Shown: in pieces, positions 2,634-42,033 of the stretch
Layout of the letters: each line of letters begins with the position of its first letter
How positions within the stretch are numbered: position 1 is the stretch's first letter
Source of the DNA: an uncultured Clostridia bacterium
GTDB taxonomy: Bacteria; Bacillota; Clostridia; Christensenellales; UBA1242
NCBI GenBank assembly: GCA_944381155.1
Contig: CALWKA010000003.1
Span: 3,530 to 67,529, forward strand
Length of the DNA stretch: 64,000 bases
Direction: 5' to 3'
Translations under genes and position numbers: made by a program
Notes under the pieces: generated by a model
What the model was told of the DNA's origin: nothing
Database searches by the model: none
Seen by the model: only the letters and a program-made list of their open reading frames with translations

Positions 2634-3809
2634 ATGTCTAATTTACTTAGTGTAGCATCCGTATTTACATATATTGGCTATATCATTTTAGCCATTATTG
2701 TTTTGCTGTTTATGGTGCTAATTCACGAATTGGGACATTATACCGCGGGTAAAATATTAAAATTCAAAATTAATGAATTTAGCATTGGTTTTGGTCCAAA
2801 ATTGATACAAAAAACTAAAAAAAATGGTGAAAAAATTTCACTTCGCGCCCTGCCTTTAGGCGGATATTGTGCATTTGAAGGAGAGGGAGAAGAAGGGCAA
2901 ACTAATCCGCAAGCATTTAATAATCAAAAGCCGTGGAAGCGATTGATTGTGCTATTTTTCGGTGCTTTTTTCAATTTTTTGAGCGCTATAATATTTTCAT
3001 TTATATTGTTGATTTCATCAGGTTATGATTTAGTAGAAATTAAGAATTTGAACGAAAATTCTATAAATTACAACACATTTCAAACGGGCGATGTTATTTA
3101 TGGTATTGACGGGAAAGAGATTGATTTCGTTCACGACGAATATTTTAACAACCTGCTCACCGACTGCGTGACAGATCATTATTCAAAATATGACGGGAGC
3201 ATTGCGGATCTAGAAAATGAATACTCATTTTCAGACGAAGGGAAAACTTATTATTTTGATATGCAATCAATCAATTTTAATGTAAGGCGAGCAGGTGAAG
3301 ATATTGAAATCACGGGGTATATTAATGTCATATATGATGACAAAGGCGAATATGCCGGTTGGTCACTTTACAGCACAAATCAAGCAGATTCAAACGAATT
3401 TTCAATAGGCAATTATAAATATTCATTTTGGGAAAGTCTAGTAGAAGCGATACCTTTCACATGCAAATGGGCTTGGAAAATCCTTGTGATATTAGGTCAG
3501 TTGTTGACAGGGCAGCTATCCTTGACATCATTAGGCGGGCCAGTCACCACAATAAACACCATCGCTTCATACACTCAAACAGGTGGGTGGGCATATTTAG
3601 CAATATTATTGCCATTGATTGCTGTGAATTTGGCAGTGTTTAATCTGTTGCCAATACCTGCTTTGGACGGCTTCCAAATGATATTTGTAATTATTGAATG
3701 GATAAGGAAAAAGCCTTTAAAACAAACCGTGATCAACACTATAAATAATGTAGGATTGATAGTATTATTATGTTTTGTGGTGTTGGTGGACATATTGCAA
3801 TTTGTTTAA
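2634..3809 (+). CDS. rseP: RIP (site-2) zinc metalloprotease RseP/RasP
   Basis: HELGH in TM1, central PDZ-like region, NLLPIPALDG motif; AGGAG SD. Confidence 0.9.
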   Translation: MSNLLSVASVFTYIGYIILAIIVLLFMVLIHELGHYTAGKILKFKINEFSIGFGPKLIQKTKKNGEKISLRALPLGGYCAFEGEGEEGQTNPQAFNNQKPWKRLIVLFFGAFFNFLSAIIFSFILLISSGYDLVEIKNLNENSINYNTFQTGDVIYGIDGKEIDFVHDEYFNNLLTDCVTDHYSKYDGSIADLENEYSFSDEGKTYYFDMQSINFNVRRAGEDIEITGYINVIYDDKGEYAGWSLYSTNQADSNEFSIGNYKYSFWESLVEAIPFTCKWAWKILVILGQLLTGQLSLTSLGGPVTTINTIASYTQTGGWAYLAILLPLIAVNLAVFNLLPIPALDGFQMIFVIIEWIRKKPLKQTVINTINNVGLIVLLCFVVLVDILQFV

Positions 3810-3810: not shown

Positions 3811-3848
3811 AGTCAGAATTGGTATAGTTGACAATTTTGACTTTTTTT
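3811..3848 (+). terminator. rho-independent terminator after rseP
   Basis: AGTCAGAATTG (3811-3821) pairs with CAATTTTGACT (3832-3842, one G-U), followed by a T7 run. Confidence 0.75.
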
Positions 3849-3856
3849 GATAAAAT
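3828..3856 (+). promoter_or_regulatory. sigma-A promoter nested in the rseP terminator, for the PolC-like gene (leaderless candidate)
   Basis: TTGACA (3828-3833), 17-nt spacer, TAAAAT (3851-3856); ATG 3865 lies 8 nt after the -10 and has no SD. Confidence 0.55.
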
Positions 3857-3864: not shown

Positions 3865-5385
3865 ATGAATGATAGATTAGAAATTTTAGATAGATTATAT
3901 GACGGATTAAAATTCAAAGATGCCACATACACAGAAAAAAATAACACTTGTGTTATGAATTTTTTGTACAATCCAGATGTTTTCAAGCCGAATGAGCAAA
4001 ATCGCGCTGAACTTTTGAAAAAATTTAATGAGTTGATTGGAGATTATGTCAAATACGATATAAAATTCACGAATTGTTCGCTAGACAAGCGTAATATTGC
4101 AAACTATACATATTCGACTATTATGAATATTTTTCCTGCAATTTCAAAGAATTTTACCTATGACGATGTGTCTGTAAACATTGACAATATGAAAGTAAAT
4201 ATTTGTCTGAGATTGTCGCCATCAGCATACGAGTATGCAAAGAGTCTAAATAGAGAAATTTTGATTGCGGAAAAATTGAAAGAAAGTTTTTTGGCTGATT
4301 TTTCTGTTGAGTTTGAGAAAAAAGACGATGAAGTGGTGGTAGAAAATCGCATAGAGAGCAATATAGAATTTATGTCGTCAATTAAGGAAGCAGAAGAGAA
4401 GACGGTATATGAATTGTCGAATCAAGCAAACATTATCGGGACAAATGATTATACATTAGCCACAGATTTTACCAAGTTCAATTCTCCAGTAGAAAATGTT
4501 GCAATTTGCGGAGAAGTTAGTTCAGTTCAGCGCAAGACATACAAGCGAAATTATACTCGTAATGGAGAAACAAAAGAAATAGAACGCACTTTTTACAATT
4601 TTACTTTGCGCAATGAAAATAAATTTTTGTATTGTTCAATTTTTCCAAAGCAAACGGACGAAGCAAAGGGCGATTTGATAGAAGTTGGAATGAAAGTGTG
4701 TTGTTTCGGCTCATTCAGAGAATATAAGGGCAAGATGAATTTCACTGCAAATTCTATAGCAAGATGCGAATACAAACGAGAAGAGATAAAATCTCAATTC
4801 AAACATGTCAACGAAGAATATCATACCGTATTCCCTAAAAAATATATAGATTATGAGCAAGCAGATTTATTTTCTGAAGAAGAAAAGTCATTTGATGGAA
4901 GTTTTGTAGTATTCGATCTGGAAACCACAGGACTAGAACCCACAAAAGATGAAATAATAGAGATTGGCGCGTGTAAAATTTTGCAAGGTAAAATCGTAGA
5001 AACATTTTCTACATTTGTTAAACCCGCAAAAAGTATCCCGAAAGAAATCACAAATTTAACAGGTATTGATAATGGTATGGTGGAAAATGCGCCAACAATC
5101 AATTATGTATTGCCAGATTTTTATAAGTTTTGTTTTGGTTCTACAATGGTAGGGCACAATGTGTCATTTGATATTTCGTTTATATACAATATAGCAAAAA
5201 AATTGTCCTATAATTTTGACAATCCGCTAATGGATACACTTGAGATGGCGCGTGCAAAACTGCCCGGACTGAAAAATTATAAACTAGCAACTGTGGTAGA
5301 TAAATTAAATATTGTATTAGAAAACGCACATAGAGCAATCAATGATGCAACAGCAACGGCAAAAGTTTTTATAAAATTGTATTAA
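3865..5385 (+). CDS. PolC-type N-terminal domain + OB fold + DEDDh 3'-5' exonuclease; no PHP or polymerase core
   Basis: Exo motifs FVVFDLETTGL, HNVSFDISF and HRAINDATATA closely resemble the PolC proofreading domain (PLMDTLEMAR vs PolC PVIDTLELGR). An OB-like segment (VAICGEVSSV...KVCCFGSF) lies upstream. The ORF stops cleanly at the end of the exo domain. The ORF track starts at TTG 3847; ATG 3865 is preferred. Confidence 0.8.
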   Translation: MNDRLEILDRLYDGLKFKDATYTEKNNTCVMNFLYNPDVFKPNEQNRAELLKKFNELIGDYVKYDIKFTNCSLDKRNIANYTYSTIMNIFPAISKNFTYDDVSVNIDNMKVNICLRLSPSAYEYAKSLNREILIAEKLKESFLADFSVEFEKKDDEVVVENRIESNIEFMSSIKEAEEKTVYELSNQANIIGTNDYTLATDFTKFNSPVENVAICGEVSSVQRKTYKRNYTRNGETKEIERTFYNFTLRNENKFLYCSIFPKQTDEAKGDLIEVGMKVCCFGSFREYKGKMNFTANSIARCEYKREEIKSQFKHVNEEYHTVFPKKYIDYEQADLFSEEEKSFDGSFVVFDLETTGLEPTKDEIIEIGACKILQGKIVETFSTFVKPAKSIPKEITNLTGIDNGMVENAPTINYVLPDFYKFCFGSTMVGHNVSFDISFIYNIAKKLSYNFDNPLMDTLEMARAKLPGLKNYKLATVVDKLNIVLENAHRAINDATATAKVFIKLY

Positions 5386-5390: not shown

Positions 5391-5419
5391 TTGATTATTA
5401 AATTTTTATATGGTATAAT
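5391..5419 (+). promoter_or_regulatory. sigma-A promoter of the rimP-nusA-infB operon
   Basis: TTGATT (5391-5396), 17-nt spacer, TGgTATAAT extended -10 (TATAAT 5414-5419). Confidence 0.55.
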
Positions 5420-5433: not shown

Positions 5434-5454
5434 GGGAGTGGCATTGCCACTCCT
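5434..5454 (+). promoter_or_regulatory. GC-rich 5'-leader hairpin upstream of rimP (candidate rimP-leader/attenuator)
   Basis: GGAGTGGC-ATT-GCCACTCC (8-9 bp stem) between the promoter and the rimP SD, followed by the U-rich stretch TTAGTTTTAT. Confidence 0.4.
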
Positions 5455-5475
5455 AATTAGTTTTATAGGAGTAAT

Positions 5476-5928
5476 ATGAAAGTAGCAGATTTAGTTTATG
5501 AAAACATAAAGCCACTATTTCGGGATGATATAAGATTAGTGGAAGTAGAGTATGTAAAGCACAACGATGGTATGCACTTGGTCATTTACATTGACAAAGA
5601 TGGTGGAGTGAACATAGATGACTGTGTCAAAGTAAACGATCTTATCAATCAAACGATTGACGATTTGAATCCAACTGGCGATGCATCTTATGTGTTAGAT
5701 GTGTCATCTTATGGGTTAGATAGGCCATTAAAATACGATTGGCAGTTCAAAAAATATCAAAATCAAAAAGTCAATGTGAAACTTTATAGGAAGATTGACG
5801 GCAAAAAAGAGTTTGTGGCAACCCTATTAGGAAAGGATGAAAAAGGTTTTATTTTCAATATTGATGATGAAAATTTTACTATAAATACTGCTGATGTAGC
5901 ATATATTACACCATATATAGAATTTTAA
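5476..5928 (+). CDS. rimP: ribosome maturation factor RimP
   Basis: 150-aa ORF immediately upstream of nusA; RimP-like sequence (LVEVEY...LVIYID.DGGV..DDC, LDVSSYGLDRPL). Confidence 0.9.
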   Translation: MKVADLVYENIKPLFRDDIRLVEVEYVKHNDGMHLVIYIDKDGGVNIDDCVKVNDLINQTIDDLNPTGDASYVLDVSSYGLDRPLKYDWQFKKYQNQKVNVKLYRKIDGKKEFVATLLGKDEKGFIFNIDDENFTINTADVAYITPYIEF

Positions 5929-5941
5929 GGAGTAGACGAAA

Positions 5942-7069
5942 ATGATTAATAAAGATTTTTTTGAAGCATTAAGAGATTTGGAAGCGGAAAAAGGGATAAA
6001 GCAAGAAGTTTTCATTTCAGCATTAGAGCAAGCATTGACTGCAGCGTATAAAAAGAATAGCGGAGAGGCACGCAACGCACAAGTGAAATTGATTCCAGAA
6101 AAGAACACTATTAAAATTTATTCATATAGAACAGTAGTTGACAAAGTTGAAGATGAAGAAAAAGAGATCAGTTTAGTAGATGCACACCAAATTAAGCATT
6201 CGTACAAAGTTGGCGATTTAGTGATGCAGGAAGAAAGCACAAAAGAATTTAACCGCATAGCAGTTCAAACAGCCAAACAGGTCATTACTCAAAAGATCAA
6301 AGAGATTGAGAAACAATCTGTATATAAAGATATTGCAGAAAAAGAAGGAAAACTTATTGTAGCGAATGTAAAGCGAATTGATGGTGAAAATGTTTATCTT
6401 GAGATTGGTGGCACTACGCTTGAAGGATTGCTTACGAAACGCGATATGTTGCCTACAGATCATTTTAAACCAGGTGACAAAGTAAAGGTGTATGTTCGCC
6501 ACATTCATAATGACTTTAAGGGAACGGTAGTTCAGGTGACCAGGACGCACGCAAATTTTGTAAAATTGTTGCTCGAAATGGAAGTGCCAGAACTAACCAA
6601 TGGTGAAGTGACTATTGTAGGAATTGTGCGCGAGGCAGGATTGAGAACAAAAATCGCTGTAACCTCCAGCGTACCAAATCTAGACGCGGTGGGAGCGTGC
6701 ATAGGGAACAGAGGTAGTAGAATTAACCCGGTGATCAACGAATTGAACGGCGAAAAAATAGATATAATAAATTATAGTGAGAATCCAGCAGAATATATTG
6801 TATCAGCCTTGAGCCCAGCCGAAGTGAGCGAAATAACTGTGGATACTGCTGCAGGAGTGGCAAATGTTGTTGTGCCAGAAAATAAACTTTCACTAGCAAT
6901 AGGGAAAGGCGGGCACAATGTCCGTTTGGCAGCGAAACTTACGGGATATAAAATCGATGTCAAACCTACAACAATTGATTCATCTGCACATAAGTCAAAT
7001 GATGTAGTTAGCACTAATAGTGCAAACATTATTCTAGATGATGATTTCTTTGATGATATAGACGAATAA
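5942..7069 (+). CDS. nusA: transcription termination/antitermination factor NusA
   Basis: N-terminal domain, S1 and two KH domains recognisable (GACIGNRGSRI, LAIGKGGHNVRLA). Confidence 0.95.
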   Translation: MINKDFFEALRDLEAEKGIKQEVFISALEQALTAAYKKNSGEARNAQVKLIPEKNTIKIYSYRTVVDKVEDEEKEISLVDAHQIKHSYKVGDLVMQEESTKEFNRIAVQTAKQVITQKIKEIEKQSVYKDIAEKEGKLIVANVKRIDGENVYLEIGGTTLEGLLTKRDMLPTDHFKPGDKVKVYVRHIHNDFKGTVVQVTRTHANFVKLLLEMEVPELTNGEVTIVGIVREAGLRTKIAVTSSVPNLDAVGACIGNRGSRINPVINELNGEKIDIINYSENPAEYIVSALSPAEVSEITVDTAAGVANVVVPENKLSLAIGKGGHNVRLAAKLTGYKIDVKPTTIDSSAHKSNDVVSTNSANIILDDDFFDDIDE

Positions 7070-18777: not shown

Positions 18778-18971
18778 TTGAACAAAATATTAAAAGATTG
18801 GAAGAAATTGCAAAGAAATTGGAAGATGGAACGAATCTTGACGAAAGTTTAAAATTGTATGAAGAAGGATGTAAATTGGCAAAAACTTGCTTAAAAGATT
18901 TGGAAAAAGCAAAAGGAAAGATTATAATGATTAAGAAAGAATTTGAGAAAAAAGGTGAGGATGATGAATAA
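18774..18971 (+). CDS. xseB: exodeoxyribonuclease VII small subunit
   Basis: 65 aa; LE.I...LE.G...L..SL..YE.G motif; ATGA overlap with xseA. Confidence 0.9.
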   Translation: MIEQNIKRLEEIAKKLEDGTNLDESLKLYEEGCKLAKTCLKDLEKAKGKIIMIKKEFEKKGEDDE

Positions 18972-20388
18972 ACAATTTGTAAATGATTTGGCAGATATCA
19001 AAACAAATTTTGCACAGTGGTATACAGATGTTATTTTGAAAACGGATATGGTTGATTATGGTCCTGTGAAAGGCACTATGGTTATCAAACCTTATGGTTA
19101 TGCAATATGGGAAAATATTCAACATTATTTGGATAAAGAATTCAAAAAGCGCGGAGTTCAAAATGCCTATTTCCCGCTTTTGATACCAGAAAGTTATCTG
19201 AAAAAAGAAGCTGAACATGTTGAAGGATTTGCTCCTGAAGTTGCAGTTGTGACATATGCGGGCGGAGAAGAATTGAGTGAAAAATTAATTATTCGCCCGA
19301 CTAGTGAAACTATTATTTGTGCGATGTACGCCAAATGGATAAAATCATATCGCGATCTTCCAATGAAAATGAATCAATGGTGTAATGTGATGAGATGGGA
19401 AAAAACTACTCGTCCATTTTTGCGCACTAGTGAATTTTTGTGGCAAGAAGGTCACACTGTACAAGCGACTAATGAAGACGCTGAAAAAGATGTTCAAGAA
19501 ATGTTAAAAGTGTATACTGATTGTTTAAGAAATCTTATGGCTATCCCTACGCTTACAGGCAAAAAGACTGAAAAAGAAAAATTTGCAGGAGCGGTGGCAA
19601 CATACGGTATGGAAGCGCTGATGAAAGACGGAAAATGTCTTCAAGCTGGCACGACGCATAATTTAGGGCAAAATTTTGCAAAAGCAAGTAATATTCGATT
19701 TTTGAATAAAAATGGTGAGTTGGAATATGGGTATTCGACAAGTTGGGGAGTCAGCACAAGATTAATAGGGGCATTAGTTATGGTGCACGGAGATGAGCGC
19801 GGACTTCGCCTTCCACCAAACATAGCACCAATTCAAGCGGTGATTGTGCCTATTGCTAATCATAAATCTGGCGTCAATGAAAAGTGCGAAGAAATATTCA
19901 AAAAATTAACAAAGGCAGAGATAAGAGTTAAATTAGACAATTCGGACAACACTCCTGGTTGGAAATTCAACGAATATGAGATGAAAGGAGTGCCTGTCCG
20001 TCTAGAGATTGGTCCAAGAGATATTGAAAATAATGTTTTGACAGCAGTTAGGCGAGACACTCACGAAAAAACACAATTGAATTTGGATAATATTGAGAAA
20101 GAGTTAAAAGATTTGTTGCAGGATATTCAGTCAAATATGCTAACGCAAGCTGAAGAAAATTTGAAATCATCAATTATTGAAACAGATGATTTTGATACGC
20201 TTGTCGATTCGATAAATAACGGCAAAGTTGCGTTGGCATATCATTGTGGAGATATTGCCTGCGAAGAAGAAATTCAACAAAATACCGCAATAAAGACACG
20301 GGTCATTGAAAGTTATGATAAAAATCATACCTGCGTTTATTGCAAAAAACCTAGCAAATATAGAGTCTATTTTGGAAAACAATATTAG
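18961..20388 (+). CDS. proS: proline--tRNA ligase (archaeal/eukaryote-like type)
   Basis: Class II motifs; no bacterial INS editing domain; C-terminal Zn-binding-like domain ending in Y. ATG 18961 follows a GGTGAGG SD and overlaps the xseB end. Confidence 0.9.
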   Translation: MMNKQFVNDLADIKTNFAQWYTDVILKTDMVDYGPVKGTMVIKPYGYAIWENIQHYLDKEFKKRGVQNAYFPLLIPESYLKKEAEHVEGFAPEVAVVTYAGGEELSEKLIIRPTSETIICAMYAKWIKSYRDLPMKMNQWCNVMRWEKTTRPFLRTSEFLWQEGHTVQATNEDAEKDVQEMLKVYTDCLRNLMAIPTLTGKKTEKEKFAGAVATYGMEALMKDGKCLQAGTTHNLGQNFAKASNIRFLNKNGELEYGYSTSWGVSTRLIGALVMVHGDERGLRLPPNIAPIQAVIVPIANHKSGVNEKCEEIFKKLTKAEIRVKLDNSDNTPGWKFNEYEMKGVPVRLEIGPRDIENNVLTAVRRDTHEKTQLNLDNIEKELKDLLQDIQSNMLTQAEENLKSSIIETDDFDTLVDSINNGKVALAYHCGDIACEEEIQQNTAIKTRVIESYDKNHTCVYCKKPSKYRVYFGKQY

Positions 20389-21742: not shown

Positions 21743-23254
21743 ATGAAGTCGCGATGGTTTAATTATCGACCATTATGTATAGTTTTTGTTTTCCTATTGT
21801 TAGGATCTGTTTTTGTATTTTATTTATCAGATTATAGAATTTTATCAATCATAACTACAATAATTATTTTTGTGTTTTTACTTATTTTGACGATCATTAG
21901 AAAGAAGATAAAATATATTTTGATTCCATTGATTTCTTTTATTGTTGGTGCAATTTTATATTATAGTTCAGTTTCGTCATTTCAAAAAGAAATTGAAATT
22001 CCAAATTCAATTCAAGCTAGAATTTATAATGTCAATTCAATTGAAGATGGAAGAATTAAAGTATATGCTGACAGTTGCATATTCGACGGGGTGGAGATAA
22101 ATGAAAATTTGATAATCTATGTTTATGATAGTTCAAATTTATTTGAAAATATTGAAATTGGTAGCCTAATCAGCTTTTCGCCTAGCAACTTTTATCAAAC
22201 AGATTTATTTTATTATGGCACGCCTAATGCTAGTTATTATCTTAAAGGATTGAAGTATAGTGCAACTGCAAATGCTAGTGAAATAAACTACCTTGAAACA
22301 GACGAAACTTTTGCCGAAAAACTAAAACAATATGTGAAAGATAATTTGAGAGGAAGTTTGACGAATGAAAATGTTGAGATTGCGTATTCATCTTTGTTTG
22401 GTGAAATCGAACTTTTGTCGGATAGTCAATATAATGCATACAAATTGTCTGGCGTGGCGCACTTGCTAGCCGTGTCTGGAATGCATGTAGTAATTATAGT
22501 AGGAATTTTAAATAAAATATTAGATTTTTTGAGAATAAAAAATTGGCCACGAATCATAATAGTTTCAATTTTATTGTTATTTTATATGTATATATGCAAC
22601 TTTGCAGTATCAATCATTAGAGCCACAATAATGTCTATAGTAATGCTATTAGCACCTAAATTTTTCAGAGAATATGACACTTTATCTTCAATTGCGTTGT
22701 CTGGAATCATTATATATTTAATTAATCCATTGACCGCATTTGACCCTGGATTTTTGATGAGTTTTGCCTGTGTGATCGGAATTGCCACATTAAATAAACC
22801 GATTGCAAGCGCATTGAGTCATTGCAAAATGCCAAAATGGTTGATTGATAGCATATCAATCAGTGCATCAACAATGATATCCTTAATATTTATTATGGCA
22901 CACTTCTTCAATACTCTGAACGCTATATCATTAATAGCCAATTTGATTTTGATACCAATTTTCACTTTTGCTTTCATTGCAGTATTTATTGTTTCAATTA
23001 TTGGATTGATTTTGCCATTTATCACAATTATATTATATCCAATCAATTATGTGTTTGACTTTATCAATATTGTGGCAACAATTTTAGGGAATTTGCCAAT
23101 ATCCAATTTTTCCACTGTTTCATTTAGTTATATAGCAATTTTGTTGTATGCAATGTTATTGCTCATATTGAGTAGAGTTTGCGTAGCGAATCGAACGACA
23201 AAAGTAATATTATCTTTGCCAACAGTTGCATTGTTGGTGGTATGTTTGGTATAA
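21743..23254 (+). CDS. comEC: ComEC/Rec2 DNA internalisation channel, short form without the C-terminal metallo-beta-lactamase domain
   Basis: N-terminal OB/DUF4131-like region plus a competence domain (GVAHLLAVSGMHV); 503 aa versus about 770 aa in B. subtilis; followed by holA as in Bacillus. Confidence 0.85.
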   Translation: MKSRWFNYRPLCIVFVFLLLGSVFVFYLSDYRILSIITTIIIFVFLLILTIIRKKIKYILIPLISFIVGAILYYSSVSSFQKEIEIPNSIQARIYNVNSIEDGRIKVYADSCIFDGVEINENLIIYVYDSSNLFENIEIGSLISFSPSNFYQTDLFYYGTPNASYYLKGLKYSATANASEINYLETDETFAEKLKQYVKDNLRGSLTNENVEIAYSSLFGEIELLSDSQYNAYKLSGVAHLLAVSGMHVVIIVGILNKILDFLRIKNWPRIIIVSILLLFYMYICNFAVSIIRATIMSIVMLLAPKFFREYDTLSSIALSGIIIYLINPLTAFDPGFLMSFACVIGIATLNKPIASALSHCKMPKWLIDSISISASTMISLIFIMAHFFNTLNAISLIANLILIPIFTFAFIAVFIVSIIGLILPFITIILYPINYVFDFINIVATILGNLPISNFSTVSFSYIAILLYAMLLLILSRVCVANRTTKVILSLPTVALLVVCLV

Positions 23255-23255
23255 T
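23226..23255 (+). promoter_or_regulatory. sigma-A promoter for holA inside the comEC 3' end (leaderless candidate)
   Basis: TTGCAT (23226-23231), 18-nt spacer, TGgTATAAT (TATAAT 23250-23255); ATG 23262 lies 6 nt downstream with no SD. Confidence 0.5.
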
Positions 23256-23261
23256 ATATAT

Positions 23262-24182
23262 ATGAAATTTATAGAATTGAACAAAAGTTTGAAAACAAAA
23301 ATTGAAAGCGTCTACAAAATTGTAGGAGACGATGTATTTTTGATACGCCAAACGATTATAAACTTGAAAAAGCATTTAATAAAAGCGTTTGAAGAATTTA
23401 ATTTCGTCAAACTAGATGCAGAAAAGATGAAAACGGACGAGATTGAAGCAAATTTAATGACTCTTCCAATAAATAATGATTATAGATTAGTTGTGATAGT
23501 CAATCCAAACAATGAAATATGTAAATATATTAATAATTTTGATTTTTCTGATAGTTCGACTGTGGTGCTAGCCATTGGAGCGGATAAAATTACGGTAGGG
23601 CAGATAATCGACTGCTCAAAGTTGGATAGAAAAGATCTTAATAATTATATATTGAATTATCTTGCAAAATTGAATCTATCTATACACGAGCAGGCGTTAG
23701 ATTATTTAGTGGAAGCGTGCTCATCTGATACTGCAAAAATCAATAATGAATTAAACAAAATAGTTTCATATTCATTAGGTGAAAATATAAATGTAATAGA
23801 TTTAGATTTGGTCACTAATTTAATTTCATATACAAATGAATATGTAATTTATATGCTCACGAACGCGATAGACAATAAAGATTATACAAAATATCAGACA
23901 ATCATCAATCAAATGAATAAATCGCAATCAGCTTCCGAGATATTTTCATATTTAGGAAAATACTTTAGAAGGATGCAATATATTTCAATAGACAAAAAAG
24001 ATGATGAATTGACAAAGATATTGAACATCAAACCTTATGCAGTGAAAATGGCTAGACAATCAATATCAAAAAATGGAATAAAATACTATATTAATTTATA
24101 TCAAAAATATGTAAATTTAGATTACAAAATAAAGTCGGGAGAGATTAGCGCAAAGAATGCACTACAAGAATTGATATTTTAA
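23262..24182 (+). CDS. holA: DNA polymerase III delta subunit
   Basis: 306 aa; position between comEC and rpsT as in Bacillus; delta-like N-terminal region (Y...G.D.FL). Confidence 0.8.
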   Translation: MKFIELNKSLKTKIESVYKIVGDDVFLIRQTIINLKKHLIKAFEEFNFVKLDAEKMKTDEIEANLMTLPINNDYRLVVIVNPNNEICKYINNFDFSDSSTVVLAIGADKITVGQIIDCSKLDRKDLNNYILNYLAKLNLSIHEQALDYLVEACSSDTAKINNELNKIVSYSLGENINVIDLDLVTNLISYTNEYVIYMLTNAIDNKDYTKYQTIINQMNKSQSASEIFSYLGKYFRRMQYISIDKKDDELTKILNIKPYAVKMARQSISKNGIKYYINLYQKYVNLDYKIKSGEISAKNALQELIF

Positions 24183-30091: not shown

Positions 30092-31417
30092 ATGAATAGT
30101 TATCAAGGAAAGACTTTTAATGTAGTAACTTATGGTTGTCAGATGAATGTACACGAATCAGAAAAAATTCGTGGTGTTTTATCGCGCCTAGGGATGAGTG
30201 AGATTGAAGATATTGAATCGGCAGATGTGGTAGTTTTCAACACTTGCTGTATTCGTGAAGGGGCAGAAGATAGAGCATATAATAATGTGATGGCGCTTCG
30301 TCCAATAAAAGAAAAAAATCCGAACAAAATTATTATTCTTTGCGGATGTATGCCTCAACAAAAAAATGGCAAATACAATTTGAAAGAGAAATTGCCTTTT
30401 GTAGATATTATTATTGGCACGCATAATGTAAATCAGTTGGATCAATATCTATTGAAATATGCTATGTCTAAAAAACATATTTATGATATAATTGAAAAAC
30501 CTATTGGTAGTATGGATAATGACAATTGTATACGCGACGATAAAATCAATGCTTATGTGAACATAATATATGGTTGCAACAAATTTTGCACATATTGTAT
30601 CGTTCCTTATGTTCGCGGCAGAGAGATGAGCAGGACTCCGCAAGACATTTATAGGGAAGTCAAGGACATTGTACAAAATCAGGGCTACAAATATGTCACT
30701 TTGCTTGGACAAAATGTCAATTCTTATGGAAAAGATTTGAAAGATAAAATGTCATTTAGCGAATTGCTGACATATCTTTGCCAAATTGAAGGAGATTTTA
30801 AGATTAAATTTATGACTTCTCATCCTATGGATTTAGGAGATGACTTAATTAAGGTTATGAAGCAGGAGGACAAGATTGCAAAAGCATTACATCTTCCCGT
30901 TCAATCTGGCAGTTCAAAGATATTAGCGAAAATGAATAGACACTATGATATCAAGCACTATATGTCAATTATCAAAAAATTAAGACGAGCTATGCCAAAC
31001 ATTGCTTTATCTACTGATATAATTGTAGGCTTTCCTGGAGAGATAGAAAAAGACTTCAATTTAACTTTGAAATTATTAAAGAAAGTAAAATACGATCAAG
31101 TTTTTGCCTTTATGTATTCAAAAAGGTCGGGCACTCCAGCTGCATCATTTGAAGATCAAATAGACGAAAAGGAAAAGAATGTTAGATTGAATAAATTATT
31201 GAGATTGCAAAAATTGATTCAAAAGGATCAAATAAAAAAATATTTCAACAAAACTTATGATTGTTTGATACGACATATTAATGGTGTAGCTGTTGGGATC
31301 ACAGACGGCGGAAAAGAAATTTATATTCCTAATTACAAATATGTAAATCAAAATTATTTCGCAAAAGTAAAAATAGAAGGTATCCGCAATCATAAGTTGT
31401 CAGGAGAAATCAAATGA
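30092..31417 (+). CDS. miaB: tRNA (i6A37) methylthiotransferase MiaB
   Basis: UPF0004 domain (YGCQMN), radical-SAM CNKFCTYC motif, C-terminal TRAM domain. Confidence 0.9.
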   Translation: MNSYQGKTFNVVTYGCQMNVHESEKIRGVLSRLGMSEIEDIESADVVVFNTCCIREGAEDRAYNNVMALRPIKEKNPNKIIILCGCMPQQKNGKYNLKEKLPFVDIIIGTHNVNQLDQYLLKYAMSKKHIYDIIEKPIGSMDNDNCIRDDKINAYVNIIYGCNKFCTYCIVPYVRGREMSRTPQDIYREVKDIVQNQGYKYVTLLGQNVNSYGKDLKDKMSFSELLTYLCQIEGDFKIKFMTSHPMDLGDDLIKVMKQEDKIAKALHLPVQSGSSKILAKMNRHYDIKHYMSIIKKLRRAMPNIALSTDIIVGFPGEIEKDFNLTLKLLKKVKYDQVFAFMYSKRSGTPAASFEDQIDEKEKNVRLNKLLRLQKLIQKDQIKKYFNKTYDCLIRHINGVAVGITDGGKEIYIPNYKYVNQNYFAKVKIEGIRNHKLSGEIK

Positions 31418-33978
31418 GTGAACGAAAGATAAACAAACAAGATAAACTATCACCTATGATGGTTCAATATTTAGCGACGAAAGAGCAATACAAAGATTGC
31501 ATATTGTTTTATCGTTTGGGTGATTTTTATGAAATGTTTTATGACGATGCGGTGCTTGCTAGCAAAGAATTGGATTTGACCTTGACAGGCAAAGATTGTG
31601 GCACTAGCGAGCGTGCTCCAATGTGCGGAATACCATATCATGCGTACGAATCTTATGCTCAAAAATTGATAGAAAAAGGGTACAAAGTTGCCATTTGTGA
31701 ACAGATGGAAGAACCTGGTAAAAAATTGGTGAGAAGGGATGTCGTTAGAATTATCACGCCGGGCACTGTGATTGATTCATCGATGCTAAACGAGAGTATA
31801 AATTCCTATATAATGTGTATATACAAAGATAAAAACACAATATCTTATGTTTATAGTGATATTAGTACGGGAGAATTGAATGTTGGCGAATATACAGGTA
31901 AAAATTTCAAAAATTACATTAATGATCAAATAATTCGCGTTATGCCGTCAGAAATTATATGCAATAGTGAGATGAAAGATATTTCAAACGATTTGCCGTG
32001 TGTGCAATCAAATGACAAATTCAAGTTCAATTTATATTATGACTGGGCTTTCAACTATTCAAATTGTCAAACGGCAGTTTTGAAACAATATAATATTGAA
32101 TCTATTAAAGGATATGATTTTGATTCTAAATATTGCATAATAGCTGTAGGTGCACTGCTACAATATTTTTTGGAAACTCAAAAGCGAGAGCTTAAACATT
32201 TGAAAATGCCTAAACTAATTCGTGATGAGCAATTTATGTATATTGATACCAACACTAGAAGAAATCTTGAAATAGAAACTACTATGAGAGAAAATTCTAG
32301 ATATGGTAGTTTGCTTTGGGTGATTGATAGCACTTGTACTAGTGGTGGTTCACGAATGTTACGAAATTGGTTAAGGCAACCACTTCAAGATAAAGATAAA
32401 ATAAACAGGCGTTTAAACGCGGTGGAAGCATTATTTTCAGATGCTTTGATGCGCGCAGATTTGAAGAATACATTATCAAAAGTTCAAGACATTGAAAGGC
32501 TTGTGGGGAAAATCTCTTATGGCAATTTCACCCCTAAAGATTGTATTGCACTAGCTACATCTCTATCTCAAACCCCTGATTTAAAAAAGATTTTGATGCG
32601 ATCAAATGATCAAAATATTAAAATTTTAGCATCCAAATTGGTTGATACATCTGAAATTTCAAATTTGATATTCAATACAATATCAGATACTCCGCCAGCC
32701 ATTATGAAAGATGGTGGATATATAAAATCGGGCTTTAATGAATCGCTTGACAGATTGCGAAACTTAAAAAGTAATGCAGAAGACTATATTCTCAAATTGC
32801 AAGCACGAGAAAGAGAAGCTACAGGAATCAAAAATTTAAAAATTGGTTACAACAAAGTTTTTGGTTATTACATTGAAGTTAGCAAAATGTATAATGATTT
32901 AGTTCCATTTAACTATATTAGGAAGCAAACCATTTCAAACAATGAAAGATATATCACAGAAGAATTGAAAAAATTTGAAGAAGAAGTATTGACCAGTCAC
33001 GAAGAAGCTTTGAAATTGGAAGAAAAAATATTTTCAAATCTTAAAGCACAATTATTGCAGAACACAGATGTGATGCAAGATATTGCTATAGCAATTTCTA
33101 CGATTGATTGTTTATATTCGTTGAGTGTAGTAGCGGTGGAAAATGATTATACCAAGCCTAATATCACAGACGGAAAACAGATTAATATAGTGGAAGGTAG
33201 GCATCCAGTGGTAGAAAAGATGATCAAAGGATCAGATTTTATACCAAATGATTGTAGATTGAATGATACCGATCAACGCACAATCATTTTGACAGGTCCT
33301 AATATGGCAGGTAAATCTACATATATGCGTCAAGTGGCATTAATTACATATCTATCGCACATTGGCAGTTTTGTGCCAGCAAAGAGCGCGGATATTTGTA
33401 TTGTTGATAGAATTTTCACTCGTATTGGTGCTAGCGACGATTTGGCAGTTGGACAATCAACCTTTATGGTAGAGATGATTGAAGTTGCAAACATTTTAAA
33501 TTTTTGTACAAATAATAGTTTGATTATATTAGACGAAGTGGGTAGGGGAACATCTACATTTGATGGATTATCTATTGCTTGGGCAGTGGTGGAATATTTA
33601 TCAAAAAAATTGAAAGCTAAAACATTATTTGCCACCCATTATCACGAATTGATGCAACTCGAAGGGTTATATGACGGAGTTAAAAACTTTTGTATTTCAA
33701 TCAAAGAAATAGGCGGGAAATTGGTATTTTTGCGCAAAATTATGCGTGGCAGTGCTACCAAAAGCTACGGAATTGAAGTGGCAAGTTTGGCAGGATTGCC
33801 TGACGAAATAATTAATAGGGCAAAAGAGTTGATGAAAGAATTTGAAAGCGAAAAAATGGATAACAATGCTCAAGTCGAGAGTGAGATTATAGATACTTTG
33901 CGTGAAATCGATATCAATAAATTATCTCCAATGGTTGCCTTTGACACACTTGCTCATCTAATTGATTTGGTTAAATAA
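31414..33978 (+). CDS. mutS: DNA mismatch repair protein MutS
   Basis: TPMM.QY, Walker A GPNMAGKST, DE.GRGTST, TH.HEL motifs; ATGA overlap with miaB. Confidence 0.96.
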   Translation: MSERKINKQDKLSPMMVQYLATKEQYKDCILFYRLGDFYEMFYDDAVLASKELDLTLTGKDCGTSERAPMCGIPYHAYESYAQKLIEKGYKVAICEQMEEPGKKLVRRDVVRIITPGTVIDSSMLNESINSYIMCIYKDKNTISYVYSDISTGELNVGEYTGKNFKNYINDQIIRVMPSEIICNSEMKDISNDLPCVQSNDKFKFNLYYDWAFNYSNCQTAVLKQYNIESIKGYDFDSKYCIIAVGALLQYFLETQKRELKHLKMPKLIRDEQFMYIDTNTRRNLEIETTMRENSRYGSLLWVIDSTCTSGGSRMLRNWLRQPLQDKDKINRRLNAVEALFSDALMRADLKNTLSKVQDIERLVGKISYGNFTPKDCIALATSLSQTPDLKKILMRSNDQNIKILASKLVDTSEISNLIFNTISDTPPAIMKDGGYIKSGFNESLDRLRNLKSNAEDYILKLQAREREATGIKNLKIGYNKVFGYYIEVSKMYNDLVPFNYIRKQTISNNERYITEELKKFEEEVLTSHEEALKLEEKIFSNLKAQLLQNTDVMQDIAIAISTIDCLYSLSVVAVENDYTKPNITDGKQINIVEGRHPVVEKMIKGSDFIPNDCRLNDTDQRTIILTGPNMAGKSTYMRQVALITYLSHIGSFVPAKSADICIVDRIFTRIGASDDLAVGQSTFMVEMIEVANILNFCTNNSLIILDEVGRGTSTFDGLSIAWAVVEYLSKKLKAKTLFATHYHELMQLEGLYDGVKNFCISIKEIGGKLVFLRKIMRGSATKSYGIEVASLAGLPDEIINRAKELMKEFESEKMDNNAQVESEIIDTLREIDINKLSPMVAFDTLAHLIDLVK

Positions 33979-33993
33979 TTCTAGGAGGATTGA

Positions 33994-35946
33994 ATGGCTA
34001 TTAACATACTTGATACTTTGGTGATTAATAGAATTTCTGCGGGAGAAGTGGTAGAGAGTCCGTTTTCTATTGTAAAAGAGCTGATTGACAATGCTATTGA
34101 TGCTGGTGCTAGCAAAATCAACATTGAGATAAAACAAGGCGGAATTGATTCCATTATTGTGAAAGACAATGGAAAAGGAATAGAATTTGAAGATATTAAA
34201 AAAGCCTTTTTGCCACACGCTACGAGCAAAATAAAAGATGTTGATGACCTTGACTCCATTTCAACATTAGGATTTAGGGGAGAGGCACTTGCAAGCATAT
34301 CAAATGTGAGCAAAACAAATATGGTGACTAAAACAGAGTCTTCAGATTGCGCATATTCAATAGAAGTTAATGGTGGGGTGTTTAGCGAGATTAATCCAAC
34401 TAGTAGCGATGTCGGCACAAAAATTGAAGTAAACGATTTGTTCTTCAATACGCCAGCAAGAAGAAAATTTTTGAAGAAACCGAAGCAAGAAGAAAATCTT
34501 ATCACCAATATAATTTCAAGATACATTCTAGCGCATCCTAATATATCTTTTAAATATATAGCAGACAACAAAATCATATATCAAACGGTTGGGAAAACTT
34601 TATTAGACGCAATATATTGTGTATATGGCGAAGAAACTACACAAAACATTATGCCAGTGGATAAAACTATAGGAAATCTTAAACTGACAGGATTTGTTTC
34701 AAAAGTTGGATATAGCAAACCAAATACTACCTATCAAACGCTTATGGTTAATTCAAGATATGTCGTGGATGAAATTGTATCAAAAGCTACATATATGGCG
34801 TATGAAGAATATTTGATGACCAGACAATTTCCTTTTTATGTTTTGAATTTAACTATGCCTGCAGTCGATGTAGATGTAAATGTCCATCCAAGCAAAATAA
34901 ATGTAAAATTTGCTTATCCGTCTAAAATTTATGATTTAGTTTATACCGCTATTCGTTCGTCAATTTATCAGTTTTTAAATCCAAACAAAAACACACCTAT
35001 CAATGCGGAAGATATTGAAAAGCCAACAGAAAATTTGATTAAAACAGATCTGAATTCGTTAAAAGAAATCACTGTAGAAGTTAATAGAAAGAGCTCAAAC
35101 AATTCGGGATTTCTCGAACTTAAACAGACGACATATAATCCGCTTACAATATTTGATATTAAAAATGACGATGTTGCAAGAAATAACTTGCCGCAAGAAA
35201 CTAATACAAAATCAGGTCAAGAAAATCAAAATATTCCAATTCGGCCTGAACAAAATCTAAACAATGTTAATTCAAATCAACCTATAACAAAAAATACGAA
35301 ATATAAAAATGAATCAATTCAAACGAATTTAGAAAAACAAACGACTGACGATTATAAAAATGTAGATGATTTTCTAGATTACAAAATAGTAGGTGAATTG
35401 TTTAATGAGTTCCTTATTTTAGAAAGACAAGACAAAATGTTGCTAGTAGATTTTCACGCTGGGCATGAGCGCTTGAATTATGACAAATTTACTAAAATGG
35501 TGAATAGCAGAAATCTAGTGATACAAGATTTGTTGATTCCATACACTCAAGAATTAAGTCAAATTGAAATTGATTTTATTATGCAATTAAAACCCGAATT
35601 GGAGGCTTTGGGCTTTGATATTGATACATTTTCAGATAGAAAAATCATTATCAATTCAGTTCCTATGCAATTAAAAGATATAAATTTGAAAAATTTTGTA
35701 GACGATTTGGTACGCGATATGAAAAATTTGAAACCAAATATGAACAATGAAATTCGTCATTATTTAATGCAAAAAGCGTGCAAAAGTAGTGTAAAATCTG
35801 GTATGAAATTGTCCGAAATGGAAATAAAAGAATTGTTGCGCGATTTAGACATAAATAATCCTGTTTTATTGTGCCCACACGGAAGACCTGTCGTAACGGT
35901 TATCACGCGTGCCCAAATTGAAAAATGGTTTAAGAGAATTGTGTAG
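33994..35946 (+). CDS. mutL: DNA mismatch repair protein MutL
   Basis: GHKL ATPase N-terminus (INRISAGEVVESP...KELIDNAIDAG); C-terminal dimerisation/endonuclease region. Confidence 0.95.
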   Translation: MAINILDTLVINRISAGEVVESPFSIVKELIDNAIDAGASKINIEIKQGGIDSIIVKDNGKGIEFEDIKKAFLPHATSKIKDVDDLDSISTLGFRGEALASISNVSKTNMVTKTESSDCAYSIEVNGGVFSEINPTSSDVGTKIEVNDLFFNTPARRKFLKKPKQEENLITNIISRYILAHPNISFKYIADNKIIYQTVGKTLLDAIYCVYGEETTQNIMPVDKTIGNLKLTGFVSKVGYSKPNTTYQTLMVNSRYVVDEIVSKATYMAYEEYLMTRQFPFYVLNLTMPAVDVDVNVHPSKINVKFAYPSKIYDLVYTAIRSSIYQFLNPNKNTPINAEDIEKPTENLIKTDLNSLKEITVEVNRKSSNNSGFLELKQTTYNPLTIFDIKNDDVARNNLPQETNTKSGQENQNIPIRPEQNLNNVNSNQPITKNTKYKNESIQTNLEKQTTDDYKNVDDFLDYKIVGELFNEFLILERQDKMLLVDFHAGHERLNYDKFTKMVNSRNLVIQDLLIPYTQELSQIEIDFIMQLKPELEALGFDIDTFSDRKIIINSVPMQLKDINLKNFVDDLVRDMKNLKPNMNNEIRHYLMQKACKSSVKSGMKLSEMEIKELLRDLDINNPVLLCPHGRPVVTVITRAQIEKWFKRIV

Positions 35947-38962: not shown

Positions 38963-39175
38963 TGTGGATTGATGTGGAGTAATGTAAAAATTTATATCCA
39001 TATCTTTTCGCAAAACTCTTCTTTTGCGAAAAGATATGTGAAAACTTGGTAAAATTCTTGTGGAAATCATATAATTTATCCACCGATACGATTTTATAAT
39101 CGTTTGTTTGACATATTATGACAAACTATATGTTTAGTTGTCCACATATAGTTGCGTTTGTTTCTAATATACACA
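38963..39175. promoter_or_regulatory. cluster of DnaA-box-like 9-mers
   Basis: Boxes compared with TTATNCACA. Minus-oriented: 38963-38971 (CAATCCACA), 38973-38981 (TACTCCACA), 39059-39067 (ATTTCCACA). Plus-oriented: 39076-39084 TTATCCACC, 39138-39146 TTGTCCACA, 39167-39175 ATATACACA. Confidence 0.4.
38999..39038. repeat. perfect 17-6-17 palindrome (candidate tyrosine-recombinase core / dif-like site)
   Basis: CATATCTTTTCGCAAAA (38999-39015), CTCTTC spacer, TTTTGCGAAAAGATATG (39022-39038). The arms match the 21-bp inverted repeats at 39557 and 41986 in 14 of 16 nt. Confidence 0.9.
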
Positions 39176-39227
39176 ATTGCTTCATTTTAATAATTAATTA
39201 TAAAAATATATACTTCATTATGCCAAC

Positions 39228-39249
39228 AAGATATCATTAAGATATCATT
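39228..39249 (+). repeat. perfect 11-bp tandem duplication
   Basis: AAGATATCATT x2, each unit containing GATATC. Confidence 0.9.
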
Positions 39250-39520
39250 TTAAAATTGATTAATTTAATTCTAATTCAAAAACTACTGACATTTTTTTGA
39301 TTGTAGATGACCAATTACCCATCTTTTAAAAATTGAATTCGTCTCAGCGCATTCTAGCAAATCATTAATTAATTCTTCTTACCTATTTGCTTTTATAAAA
39401 AATTAGTGTTTATTAATAACGATTAATTTTATTTTATTAAAACAATTTATAGAATAATTTGTTTATTGATTATATTTTGCATTTGATATGATTATATCAA
39501 ATATAATGTCTAATATGGTT

Positions 39521-39551
39521 ATTATATGTCATTTTTGTTTGAAATTGTCAA
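39521..39551 (-). promoter_or_regulatory. orphan sigma-A-like promoter firing leftward into the ORF-free island
   Basis: On the minus strand TTGACA (39551-39546), 19-nt spacer, TATAAT (39526-39521); no ORF of 60 aa or more lies downstream. Confidence 0.3.
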
Positions 39552-39556
39552 AATTT

Positions 39557-39577
39557 ATATCTTTGCGTAAAAAACTA
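39557..39577 (+). repeat. left 21-bp inverted repeat (IR-L)
   Basis: ATATCTTTGCGTAAAAAACTA; its exact reverse complement is at 41986-42006. Confidence 0.95.
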
Positions 39578-39604
39578 TTTTTGGTTTGAAAACTTAATTT
39601 TTCA

Positions 39605-39635
39605 TAAAAAATAATTCCCAATTTTGAGAATTATT
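39605..39635 (-). terminator. rho-independent terminator of the 181-aa membrane protein gene
   Basis: AATAATTC (39610-39617) pairs with GAATTATT (39628-39635); on the minus strand it is followed by TTTTTT. Confidence 0.65.
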
Positions 39636-39671
39636 AAAAATTATAATTGATTTTTTATAATAAATTTTAAT

Positions 39672-40217
39672 TTACAATTCTAGCGTATCATCTTCAGTAT
39701 TTTTCGATTCTTTAGCCCTATATTCTTTCCTTTCTTTTTTGGAAAATTCTGAAAATGGTTCAACAATTTTTTTAGTTTTAGCATTTGGATTATTATAGTT
39801 TAATATTACTTCTTCCAAAGAATTTTTATTATCAAAAGAAAATCCATATTTTGTCAATTTTTTGTGCTCTTTGATAATTGTTTTTATTCTTTCTATTCCC
39901 CCACTCTTTTTGAATTCTTTGTACGCATTATGTGAAATTCCATATTTATTCAATGTTTGAGATAATCTATTTTCACCCATAATAGACAATGCAAATTGAG
40001 CAATCAATACTGGAAGACAAAACAAAAGTGCGACAAATGGATGACTAAAAATTGTTAAAATAGAAAATCCGCCGACAATAATTGCCAATGGAATATATTT
40101 TACCAAAGAAATGAATTTTTCGCGAGAAATAATATCTTTGTACATATTATAATCATTTTCATCTATCTCTTTGACATTTGTTTTATTGTATAGTGCATCA
40201 TATATATTTTTATCCAT
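39672..40217 (-). CDS. hypothetical two-TM membrane protein (181 aa)
   Basis: AAAGGA SD, own promoter and terminator; two adjacent hydrophobic helices and a Lys-rich C-terminal tail; no recognisable family. Confidence 0.6.
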   Translation of the reverse strand: MDKNIYDALYNKTNVKEIDENDYNMYKDIISREKFISLVKYIPLAIIVGGFSILTIFSHPFVALLFCLPVLIAQFALSIMGENRLSQTLNKYGISHNAYKEFKKSGGIERIKTIIKEHKKLTKYGFSFDNKNSLEEVILNYNNPNAKTKKIVEPFSEFSKKERKEYRAKESKNTEDDTLEL

Positions 40218-40243
40218 ATAACAATCCTTTGTTTATGAGTTTA

Positions 40244-40272
40244 AGTTTATCACGGAAAGTTTATATTGTCAA
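40244..40272 (-). promoter_or_regulatory. sigma-A promoter of the 181-aa gene
   Basis: On the minus strand TTGACA (40272-40267), 17-nt spacer, TAAACT (40249-40244). Confidence 0.5.
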
Positions 40273-40278
40273 TACGCA

Positions 40279-40312
40279 TAAAAAAATTAGGTCATAATGT
40301 CTATGACCTAAT
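40279..40312 (-). terminator. rho-independent terminator of serS
   Basis: 10-bp stem ATTAGGTCAT/ATGACCTAAT (40286-40295 and 40303-40312), followed by T7 on the minus strand. Confidence 0.8.
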
Positions 40313-40374
40313 CAAAAACAAAATGCTAAATTTTCATTAAATAATGCAATTTTTTTATTATAATCATCATATTA

Positions 40375-41661: not shown

Positions 41662-41677
41662 AATTTCTCCTTTTAAA

Positions 41678-41910
41678 TAAAAAATATCACCCACAAAAAA
41701 TACAATTTAGAGGTGATATTTACCACTGTGCCACTCTATTTGAGCGCTAAACGCCCCACTCATTATTTGCAAATTGTGCTATGCAATCAGCCTCGCATTA
41801 CCGAGTGTCTCGGGGGTAGACGCATAAAATTTCAGTGATTTGCTTTCACCAACCGCAAACTCTCTCGCACCTAGATAATATGCTAGTCCCTATCATCGAC
41901 ATATTAAACT
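41678..41910 (-). promoter_or_regulatory. T-box riboswitch leader (Ser, UCU specifier) controlling serS
   Basis: On the minus strand: K-turn GA motifs, GAGAGAG bulge, GGTGAAAG distal loop, specifier GCG-UCU-A. The T-box sequence GAGTGGCACAGTGGTA overlaps the 5' arm of the terminator ATATCACC...GGTGATAT + T6. Confidence 0.85.
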
Positions 41911-41916
41911 AATTCA

Positions 41917-41945
41917 ATTTTAGAAAAATCATAATGATTTGTCAA
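41917..41945 (-). promoter_or_regulatory. sigma-A promoter of the serS T-box leader
   Basis: On the minus strand TTGACA (41945-41940), 17-nt spacer, TAAAAT (41922-41917). Confidence 0.6.
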
Positions 41946-41985
41946 CTTATTTTCATTAAAAATTATAAAATTATTCAAAAATCAT

Positions 41986-42006
41986 TAGTTTTTTACGCAA
42001 AGATAT
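41986..42006 (-). repeat. right 21-bp inverted repeat (IR-R)
   Basis: The plus strand reads TAGTTTTTTACGCAAAGATAT, the exact reverse complement of 39557-39577. Confidence 0.95.
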
Positions 42007-42014
42007 GATATAAT
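42006..42014 (+). promoter_or_regulatory. extended -10 promoter of the recombinase gene, abutting IR-R
   Basis: TGaTATAAT; the T of TG is the last base of IR-R. An AGAGGA SD and ATG 42034 follow. Confidence 0.45.
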
Positions 42015-42033
42015 AAAATTATAAAGAGGAATT

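Follow-up and report, generated by a model that had tools for sequence, protein, structure and literature searches.

A polymerase-less derivative of PolC occupies the polC slot in an uncultured Clostridia bacterium

The gene described here lies in a stretch of 64,000 nucleotides from an uncultured Clostridia bacterium (GenBank assembly GCA_944381155.1, contig CALWKA010000003.1, positions 3,530 to 67,529 of the forward strand). The whole stretch is referred to as the window, and positions are counted from its first letter. The gene, which together with its product is called X, runs from 3865 to 5385 on the plus strand, stop codon included, and encodes a 506-amino-acid (aa) derivative of PolC without a polymerase, composed of an N-terminal domain, an OB fold, a linker and a DEDDh exonuclease. 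It is a single uninterrupted open reading frame (ORF) of 506 codons, beginning with ATG at 3865 and ending with TAA at 5383-5385. The genes frr-uppS-cdsA-rseP are located upstream, and rimP-nusA-ylxR-ylxQ-infB, rbfA, truB, efp and then spoIIIA genes are located downstream. The slot occupied by X is bounded by rseP (2634-3809, plus strand), which encodes a site-2 protease (Peptidase_M50, PF02163) and is kept upstream of X in related loci, and by rimP and nusA (5476-7069, plus strand), with rimP starting at 5476, 90 bp past the stop codon of X.

This slot was compared in other genomes by a scan of one genome per GTDB species, and the counts of genome loci given below come from the best 80 genome hits, a sample. 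The gene order (rseP or ispG)-X-rimP-nusA-infB was found in about 45 genome loci. In 11 clostridial genomes of other orders, full-length polC is located directly upstream of rimP-nusA. Because the same slot holds full-length polC in these 11 genomes, X is the positional counterpart of polC. A sequence-only reading of the window had already placed X in the polC slot of a conserved cluster, and this is borne out by the flanking genes rseP and rimP-nusA-infB, by the 11 polC loci and by the recurrence of the short form in the same slot of related genomes. In several other clostridial lineages, polC is found outside the rimP-nusA neighbourhood.

Four parts can be distinguished in X. The PolC-type N-terminal domain (aa 1-205; 3865-4479; boundaries approximate) consists of two alpha/beta subdomains, as delimited by hhalign and the secondary structure of the AlphaFold2 model. 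It is followed by a PolC-type OB fold (aa 206-307; 4480-4785) recognized by Pfam (tRNA_anti-codon) and hhalign, in which F260 is invariant, and by a linker (aa 308-345; 4786-4899) that takes the place of the PolC N-terminal PHP segment and in which Y319 and P324 are nearly invariant. The C-terminal part is a DEDDh 3'-5' exonuclease of PolC type (aa 346-506; 4900-5382) with the catalytic residues D351, E353, D436, H489 and D494, all on the plus strand like the other parts. These five residues are invariant in 130 X sequences that share 27-65% identity.

With the single X sequence as query, Pfam detected RNase_T (PF00929) at aa 348-502 (E=4e-40), a weak, sub-threshold tRNA_anti-codon (OB fold) match at aa 212-298 (E=5.5e-5) and weak Rv2179c-like matches. 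The best NCBIfam model was PolC NF001688, which was matched by the exonuclease part only (193 bits vs a cut-off of 873), and the PolC model TIGR01405 also stayed below threshold (165 bits, cut-off 1043). The DnaQ domain-level model TIGR00573 was passed (111 bits vs a cut-off of 71.5); no other curated NCBIfam model reached its cut-off with X, the strict epsilon models TIGR01406 (88.7 vs 222.7 bits) and NF004316 (87.2 vs 196 bits) included. For the first 340 aa alone, no match to a PolC N-terminal model was obtained from Pfam or NCBIfam with the single sequence.

Profile-profile comparison was carried out by hhalign between an alignment of 130 X-family members (A1) and 29 PolCs taken from genome loci. 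The N-terminal domain together with the OB fold matched PolC along 285 collinear columns (99.6% probability, E=1.5e-24); taken separately, the N-terminal domain matched with 97.5% probability (E=5e-12) and the OB fold with 98.5% (E=3.5e-15). Whole X aligned with the first ~586 columns of the PolC profile over 505 columns (E=1.9e-87), so that X corresponds collinearly to the first two fifths of PolC, and the sole large difference was the replacement of the PolC N-terminal PHP segment, with its HxH metal-binding motif, by the 38-aa linker. An apparent BLAST extension of X aa 260-340 into the PHP segment of PolC was gapped and non-significant, and was rejected as an artefact.

The structure predicted by AlphaFold2 with A1 (mean predicted local distance difference test score, pLDDT, 94.2; predicted template modelling score, pTM, 0.73) comprises a pair of alpha/beta subdomains, then an OB barrel, a linker in coil form and the exonuclease. 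The top match of this model in a Foldseek search of the PDB was full-length PolC (9qpc_A; E=1.3e-20, 382 columns), followed by the DinG exonuclease, DnaQ domains and the Thermotoga PolC exonuclease 2p1j. The mean identity between exonuclease domains is 49% among X proteins, 53% among PolCs and 44% between X and PolC; since the last value is close to that among PolCs, it fits a retained proofreading role. The PolC-like N-terminal region proposed by the sequence-only reading was thus confirmed by profiles and structure, though it is invisible to Pfam and NCBIfam with a single sequence; the proposed OB fold and closely PolC-like DEDDh exonuclease were recovered by Pfam, hhalign and Foldseek, and the four peptide strings quoted in that reading are all present in the translation.

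Among 90 X-family members analysed with Pfam, RNase_T was found in all 90 and the OB fold in 75, and none of the 90 contained PHP, DNA_pol3_alpha (PF07733), finger (PF17657) or HHH_6 (PF14579). The C-terminal clamp motif of PolC, QLSLF, is absent from X, whose C-terminus is the last exonuclease helix. Six-frame tblastn of 29 full-length PolCs against the 64-kb window gave matches only at 4642-5379. The absence of PHP and of the polymerase core, which had been claimed before, is therefore supported by both the domain searches and tblastn. The three domains are collinear with PolC and the gene is in the polC position, hence X is a descendant of PolC without the polymerase. As judged by these comparisons, PHP, the polymerase core and the HhH module are gone, as is the clamp motif at the C-terminus, and what remains is the N-terminal domain, the OB fold and the DEDDh exonuclease with its catalytic residues.

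X belongs to a large family. In a database clustered at 90% identity, at least 120 clusters of 500-533 aa with 66-99% identity to X were found, and at least 120 further clusters were retrieved with a distant member (L037) as query. Among 50%-identity clusters (1.84 billion representatives), ~130 of the best 150 matches were end-to-end matches of 480-580 aa with 27-65% identity, and the first true PolC appeared at ~184 bits via its exonuclease only. Overall, hundreds of homologues of 500-545 aa and 27-99% identity come from many assemblers and samples, and an identical X protein occurs on independent contigs.

All of the X-type genes in the genome loci are from metagenome-assembled genomes, which have a GC content of 28 to 62% and are labelled as Clostridia or Clostridiales bacterium, 'uncultured Christensenella sp.', Christensenellaceae bacterium, Candidatus Scatosoma, Candidatus Neoclostridium and Candidatus Coproplasma. 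The last of these is assigned in GTDB to the family Borkfalkiaceae of Christensenellales (PMC8035907). One locus with X and full clostridial synteny (L012, JBFXFT010000004.1) is in a genome labelled 'Spirochaetales bacterium'; its NusA and IF2 are ~55% identical to those of the window, and mislabelling or contamination of the bin is probable. Ructibacterium, a carrier of full PolC, was set aside as a candidate member of Christensenellales because it belongs to Monoglobaceae. A comparison of the purL-polC locus L077 with the purL-ispG-X loci L019 and L026 as close relatives was also dropped, the purL genes being only 53% identical.

The history of the family was analysed with neighbour-joining trees and 200 bootstraps. 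In a tree of NusA and IF2 (826 columns), 30 genomes with X were separated from nine with polC in the slot in 200 of 200 replicates, the X carriers forming a single clade. In the tree of exonuclease domains, X was likewise separated from PolC in the best tree, with weak support (77/200). From these trees we infer that X probably had one old origin followed by vertical inheritance.

The linker contains a candidate beta-clamp-binding peptide, QADLF (aa 332-336; 4858-4872, plus strand; pattern Q-x-[NDS]-[LFMI]-[FL]), which was recognized by its conservation and whose function would be clamp binding. Q332 is invariant in 130/130 sequences of A1, and the rest of the linker around the motif is variable. 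In the AlphaFold2 model, the motif sits in the least confident stretch of the linker (pLDDT 82). In 126 of 129 X representatives, the looser expression Qxx[LFMIV][FLMIW] is matched at a distance of 22-25 residues N-terminal to the DxE motif. At the aligned place, the motif occurs in 40 of 43 X proteins from genome loci vs only one of 35 PolC-type ORFs, the latter a loose match. QADLF closely resembles QADMF, the internal clamp motif in the alpha subunit of E. coli Pol III. The linker pattern is also equal to the beta-clamp consensus QL[SD]LF (PMC3919608). Judging from its conservation, the peptide is clearly under selection, and X plausibly associates with the sliding clamp, maybe not in the whole family. 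In one large subclade (proteins P0429-P0548; L020, L028, L037), the sequence V-K-[VI]-[KA]-S-V-F-[DE] is strictly conserved in place of QxxLF.

A partner polymerase was sought around X. Across 49 loci (867 kb), a six-frame PolC search detected neither a PHP nor a polymerase sequence within 10 kb of X. In 80 loci, the ORFs near X that reach 700 aa or more encode purL, IF2, MutS, leucine-rich-repeat (LRR) proteins, GH43, an EAL-GGDEF protein and a CoA-enzyme activase, and no polymerase. The biggest ORFs of the window, namely MutS (854 aa), IF2, a class A penicillin-binding protein, an unassigned 672-aa ORF and MutL, do not include a polymerase either. When the PolC core of locus L047 was used as a query against a protein database, only close relatives of the L047 lineage were returned. 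The gene holA, encoding the delta subunit of Pol III, is present after comEC in the window (21743-24182, plus strand), and the clamp-loader machinery of a holoenzyme is therefore encoded in this genome.

We give an even chance to the reading that X is a PolC-derived, clamp-tethered, free-standing proofreading subunit acting in trans, like E. coli epsilon. For X we infer clamp binding, trans proofreading and the identity of the partner polymerase in the following form. The OB fold and N-terminal domain would place X on DNA or on partners in the replisome, and the linker peptide would tether it to the beta sliding clamp in most lineages. The DEDDh site would then remove 3' mismatches for a C-family polymerase encoded elsewhere, for which DnaE1 would be the most parsimonious candidate, and X would thus act like epsilon though it is outside the epsilon family. 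It was reported that some Clostridia are DnaE1-only and that clostridial DnaE1 keeps a conserved putative epsilon-binding surface (PMC3919608), and that the PolC exonuclease of B. subtilis proofreads in trans for DnaE (as cited in PMC12926913). A wider and more tentative proposal, which we regard as possible though rather doubtful, is that an order-level, gut-abundant clade (Christensenellales and relatives) has lost the PolC polymerase, replicates with DnaE1 alone and keeps X as a clamp-bound proofreader.

Several observations weigh against a trans-acting, clamp-bound proofreader. The polymerase set of genomes with X may be any of three, namely DnaE1 only, an exonuclease-less PolC, or a normal PolC encoded elsewhere, and no cultured organism with X was found among the homologues and genome loci listed. 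PolC is nearly universal in Firmicutes (PMC3919608, PMC12926913). Clostridial DnaE1 usually has an intact PHP proofreader (PMC3919608), which makes a separate exonuclease less obviously needed. In the window, 52 of the 57 ORFs point the way replication is inferred to run. Such gene-strand bias is classically tied to PolC-type replisomes, and it is a weak hint at a PolC polymerase that is still present. In the L037 subclade (119 clusters), V-K-S-V-F is conserved at the motif site without the typical Q, and this sequence could be either a different binding peptide or a sign of a role other than clamp binding; because so large a subclade lacks the Q, the linker peptide may do something other than bind the clamp. 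In the AlphaFold2 model, most of the linker is predicted confidently (pLDDT 93-95), which suggests that it may be docked onto a domain instead of being free. The clamp association put forward by the sequence-only reading is consequently plausible from the frequency of the peptide in X and its rarity in PolCs, and is weakened by the subclade without Q.

The sequence-only reading had also considered that X might be one half of a split PolC. In this case, X would be an obligate half, the PHP-polymerase-HhH half would be encoded elsewhere, perhaps together with an N-terminal domain and OB fold of its own, and the two would assemble non-covalently into a PolC-like replicase. X holds exactly the modules that are missing from the minimal conserved core PHP-Pol3-HhH, exonuclease-less PolCs are known in Clostridia and Negativicutes (PMC3919608), and the strong strand bias of the window would suit a PolC-type replisome. 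However, an N-terminal domain and an OB fold are still present in the exonuclease-less PolCs known so far, which therefore do not complement X. Simple fission should leave the halves adjacent somewhere, and the finding that the second half is adjacent in none of the 49 loci, nor present in the window, argues against it. In addition, X has gained its own clamp-motif-like peptide, which would be less needed by a protein bound to a polymerase with a clamp motif. A split PolC is accordingly considered unlikely.

Alternatively, as the term paralogue used in the sequence-only reading would imply, a full-length PolC could be encoded elsewhere in these genomes, with X as a truncated duplicate left in the old slot for a non-replicative role such as clamp-associated 3'-end trimming in repair or Okazaki-fragment processing. 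This would agree with the wide occurrence of PolC in Firmicutes, with the strand bias of the window and with the ability of polC to relocate, as seen from its position outside the rimP-nusA neighbourhood in several clostridial lineages. It would require duplication and relocation of an intact copy, whereas reduction in place requires neither. A redundant copy would be expected to drift, but the exonuclease of X is still PolC-like with all catalytic residues intact. No assembly was found to be common to an X locus and any of the 35 PolC-type loci among the best 80 genome hits, which speaks weakly against an additional PolC. An extra paralogue of this kind has, in our estimate, roughly one chance in a handful.

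A function in RNA metabolism is much less probable. X would in that case be a 3'-5' exoribonuclease that binds RNA through KH-like N-terminal subdomains and the OB fold, with the products of rimP, nusA, infB, rbfA and truB as partners. Its favourable points are the label '3'-5' exoribonuclease' in some sources, the weak Rv2179c-like matches, the surrounding RNA-related genes and the prediction of KH-like subdomains in the PolC N-terminal domain (PMC3919608). But the label is automatic, the neighbourhood was inherited from polC and is hence uninformative on function, the exonuclease is closest to PolC proofreading domains, and the clamp-motif-like peptide suggests DNA. A mis-assembled, frameshifted or decaying polC, favoured by nothing but the much shorter length of X compared with PolC, can practically be dismissed, as the identical protein is found on independent contigs, its hundreds of homologues are 500-545 aa long across assemblies, the active site is invariant, the AlphaFold2 model is of high confidence, and PolC remnants are present in no frame downstream of X, whether in the window or in the 49 loci; the earlier statement that X is not a truncation artefact stands.

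X can be compared with several known systems. The domain order of X, from N-terminal domain through OB fold to DEDDh exonuclease, is shared by full-length PolC, which may occupy the same slot upstream of rimP-nusA, but the PolC exonuclease is inserted into PHP, the palm, thumb, fingers, HhH and C-terminal QLSLF are present, and the Q-type linker motif of X is lacking. E. coli epsilon (DnaQ) is a stand-alone member of the DEDDh proofreading exonucleases, as X would be, and has a clamp-binding peptide of its own next to the exonuclease domain. Unlike X, it is without an N-terminal domain or OB fold, and both its clamp motif and its alpha-binding tail are C-terminal to the exonuclease, whereas the candidate motif of X is N-terminal and X ends at the last exonuclease helix, with no further sequence and so no C-terminal segment for binding the PHP domain of alpha. 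The exonuclease of X is also of the PolC lineage, as indicated by its match to 2p1j (E=1.4e-36) vs E. coli epsilon (E=2.4e-10).

Exonuclease-less PolCs of Negativicutes and some Clostridia, e.g., Acidaminococcus, represent another natural rearrangement of PolC modules in PolC+DnaE1 lineages (PMC3919608). These proteins keep the N-terminal domain, OB fold, PHP, Pol3 and HhH, and X is roughly the reverse. The DnaE1 of Bacteroidetes with an N-terminally fused exonuclease is a further independent case in which a DnaQ-type proofreader was joined to a C-family polymerase by a linker (PMC3919608); in contrast to X, the exonuclease there is attached to a functional polymerase. The PolC-like exonucleases of Firmicutes that stand alone or are joined to a helicase (NF005289/PRK06807; DinG, 8zef) are close to X in the exonuclease (1e-45 to 1e-47 in NCBIfam; Foldseek root-mean-square deviation of 1.2 A for the DinG exonuclease domain), but they have no PolC N-terminal domain and OB fold and are outside the polC slot, and X does not reach their full-length cut-offs. 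Non-canonical prokaryotic PolX is likewise a descendant of a polymerase family kept for nuclease function (PMC9226535), but it belongs to the unrelated X family, its nuclease is PHP, and its polymerase domain is present but inactive. Two unusual proteins were encountered during these comparisons: P0270, a 1631-aa PolC with two tandem RNase_T exonuclease domains inside PHP, which is the best-scoring full-length PolC against X, and P0220, a 1045-aa protein in which GIY-YIG and UVR motifs come after three RNase_T exonuclease domains.

The architecture of X is not described in the parts consulted of two surveys of C-family polymerases, PMC3919608 (2013) and PMC12926913 (2026), and a literature search did not find a paper describing it. 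The surveys do report exonuclease-less PolCs, the exonuclease-DnaE1 fusion in Bacteroidetes and many unassigned stand-alone DnaQ homologues, and the working of the clostridial PolC+DnaE1 system is acknowledged as an open question (PMC3919608). X is abundant in gut metagenomes, unnamed and inconsistently annotated. In databases it is called '3'-5' exoribonuclease', 'exonuclease domain-containing protein', 'PolC-type DNA polymerase III', 'DNA polymerase III epsilon subunit family exonuclease' or 'hypothetical protein', and because these labels vary, automated surveys can miscount PolC or miss the X family. Bacterial replicases have been sorted into three sets, i.e., DnaE1-only, PolC+DnaE1 and PolC+DnaE3. 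X amounts to a natural separation-of-function allele in the polC slot of a whole clade; it indicates that, even without the polymerase, PolC modules perform a role open to selection, the little-understood N-terminal domain among them, and it makes the idea of trans proofreading directly testable. If these genomes do replicate with DnaE1 alone and X, this would be a fourth replicase configuration beside the three sets, and the alpha-epsilon-beta arrangement of E. coli would have been re-invented convergently out of PolC parts. Antibiotics such as ibezapolstat are directed against PolC, and for these, lineages in which 'PolC' lacks the polymerase would present an intrinsically different target.

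With regard to expression, an alternative start codon, TTG at 3847, is located 18 nt upstream of the ATG of X and would give a protein of 512 aa. Met1 is kept in at least 90% of the homologues in the family alignment, and ATG 3865 is therefore the likely start. A promoter-like site that matches the consensus, TTGACA-17-TAAAAT with an extended -10 TG (3828-3856, plus strand), ends 8 nt 5' of this ATG, and no Shine-Dalgarno sequence is visible upstream of the start; for these reasons the mRNA of X may be leaderless. A second promoter-like site, TTGATT-17-TATAAT (5391-5419, plus strand; sequence match), precedes rimP, in agreement with the earlier statement that rimP follows X by 90 bp with its own promoter. 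Between this site and rimP, a GC-rich hairpin of 9 bp with a T-rich tail (5434-5464, plus strand; from the sequence) may serve to terminate X, to attenuate the rimP-nusA(-infB) operon in its leader, or both.

The surroundings of X vary in several respects. A prolyl-tRNA synthetase of ProRS-C_1 type is encoded at 18943-20388 (plus strand) of the window, 13 kb from X, and is not adjacent, unlike in the proS-polC arrangement of Bacillus. The genes mutS-mutL are located at 31414-35946, 26 kb from X, and in 'Clostridiales bacterium Firm_09' (L021:12261-15104) mutS is found ~1.2 kb downstream of X, replacing rimP-nusA. At ~39000-48100 of the window, the GC skew changes from positive to negative and the gene orientation from plus to minus, so replication appears to terminate in this region; a search of the skew switch for a B. 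subtilis-type dif site with up to 3 mismatches found none. The 672-aa ORF at 56225-58243 (plus strand) is on the strand opposite to its neighbours and has no Pfam match. Giant BspA-type LRR surface proteins adjoin the conserved cluster at L001:3-3704, L030:4964-8509 and L058:10919-14467. One such protein, of 1233 aa and encoded upstream of frr in a contig that is sister to that of the window, was considered as a polymerase candidate and rejected on this identification, and in two other lineages a BspA-type LRR protein is encoded directly after X, splitting it from rimP.

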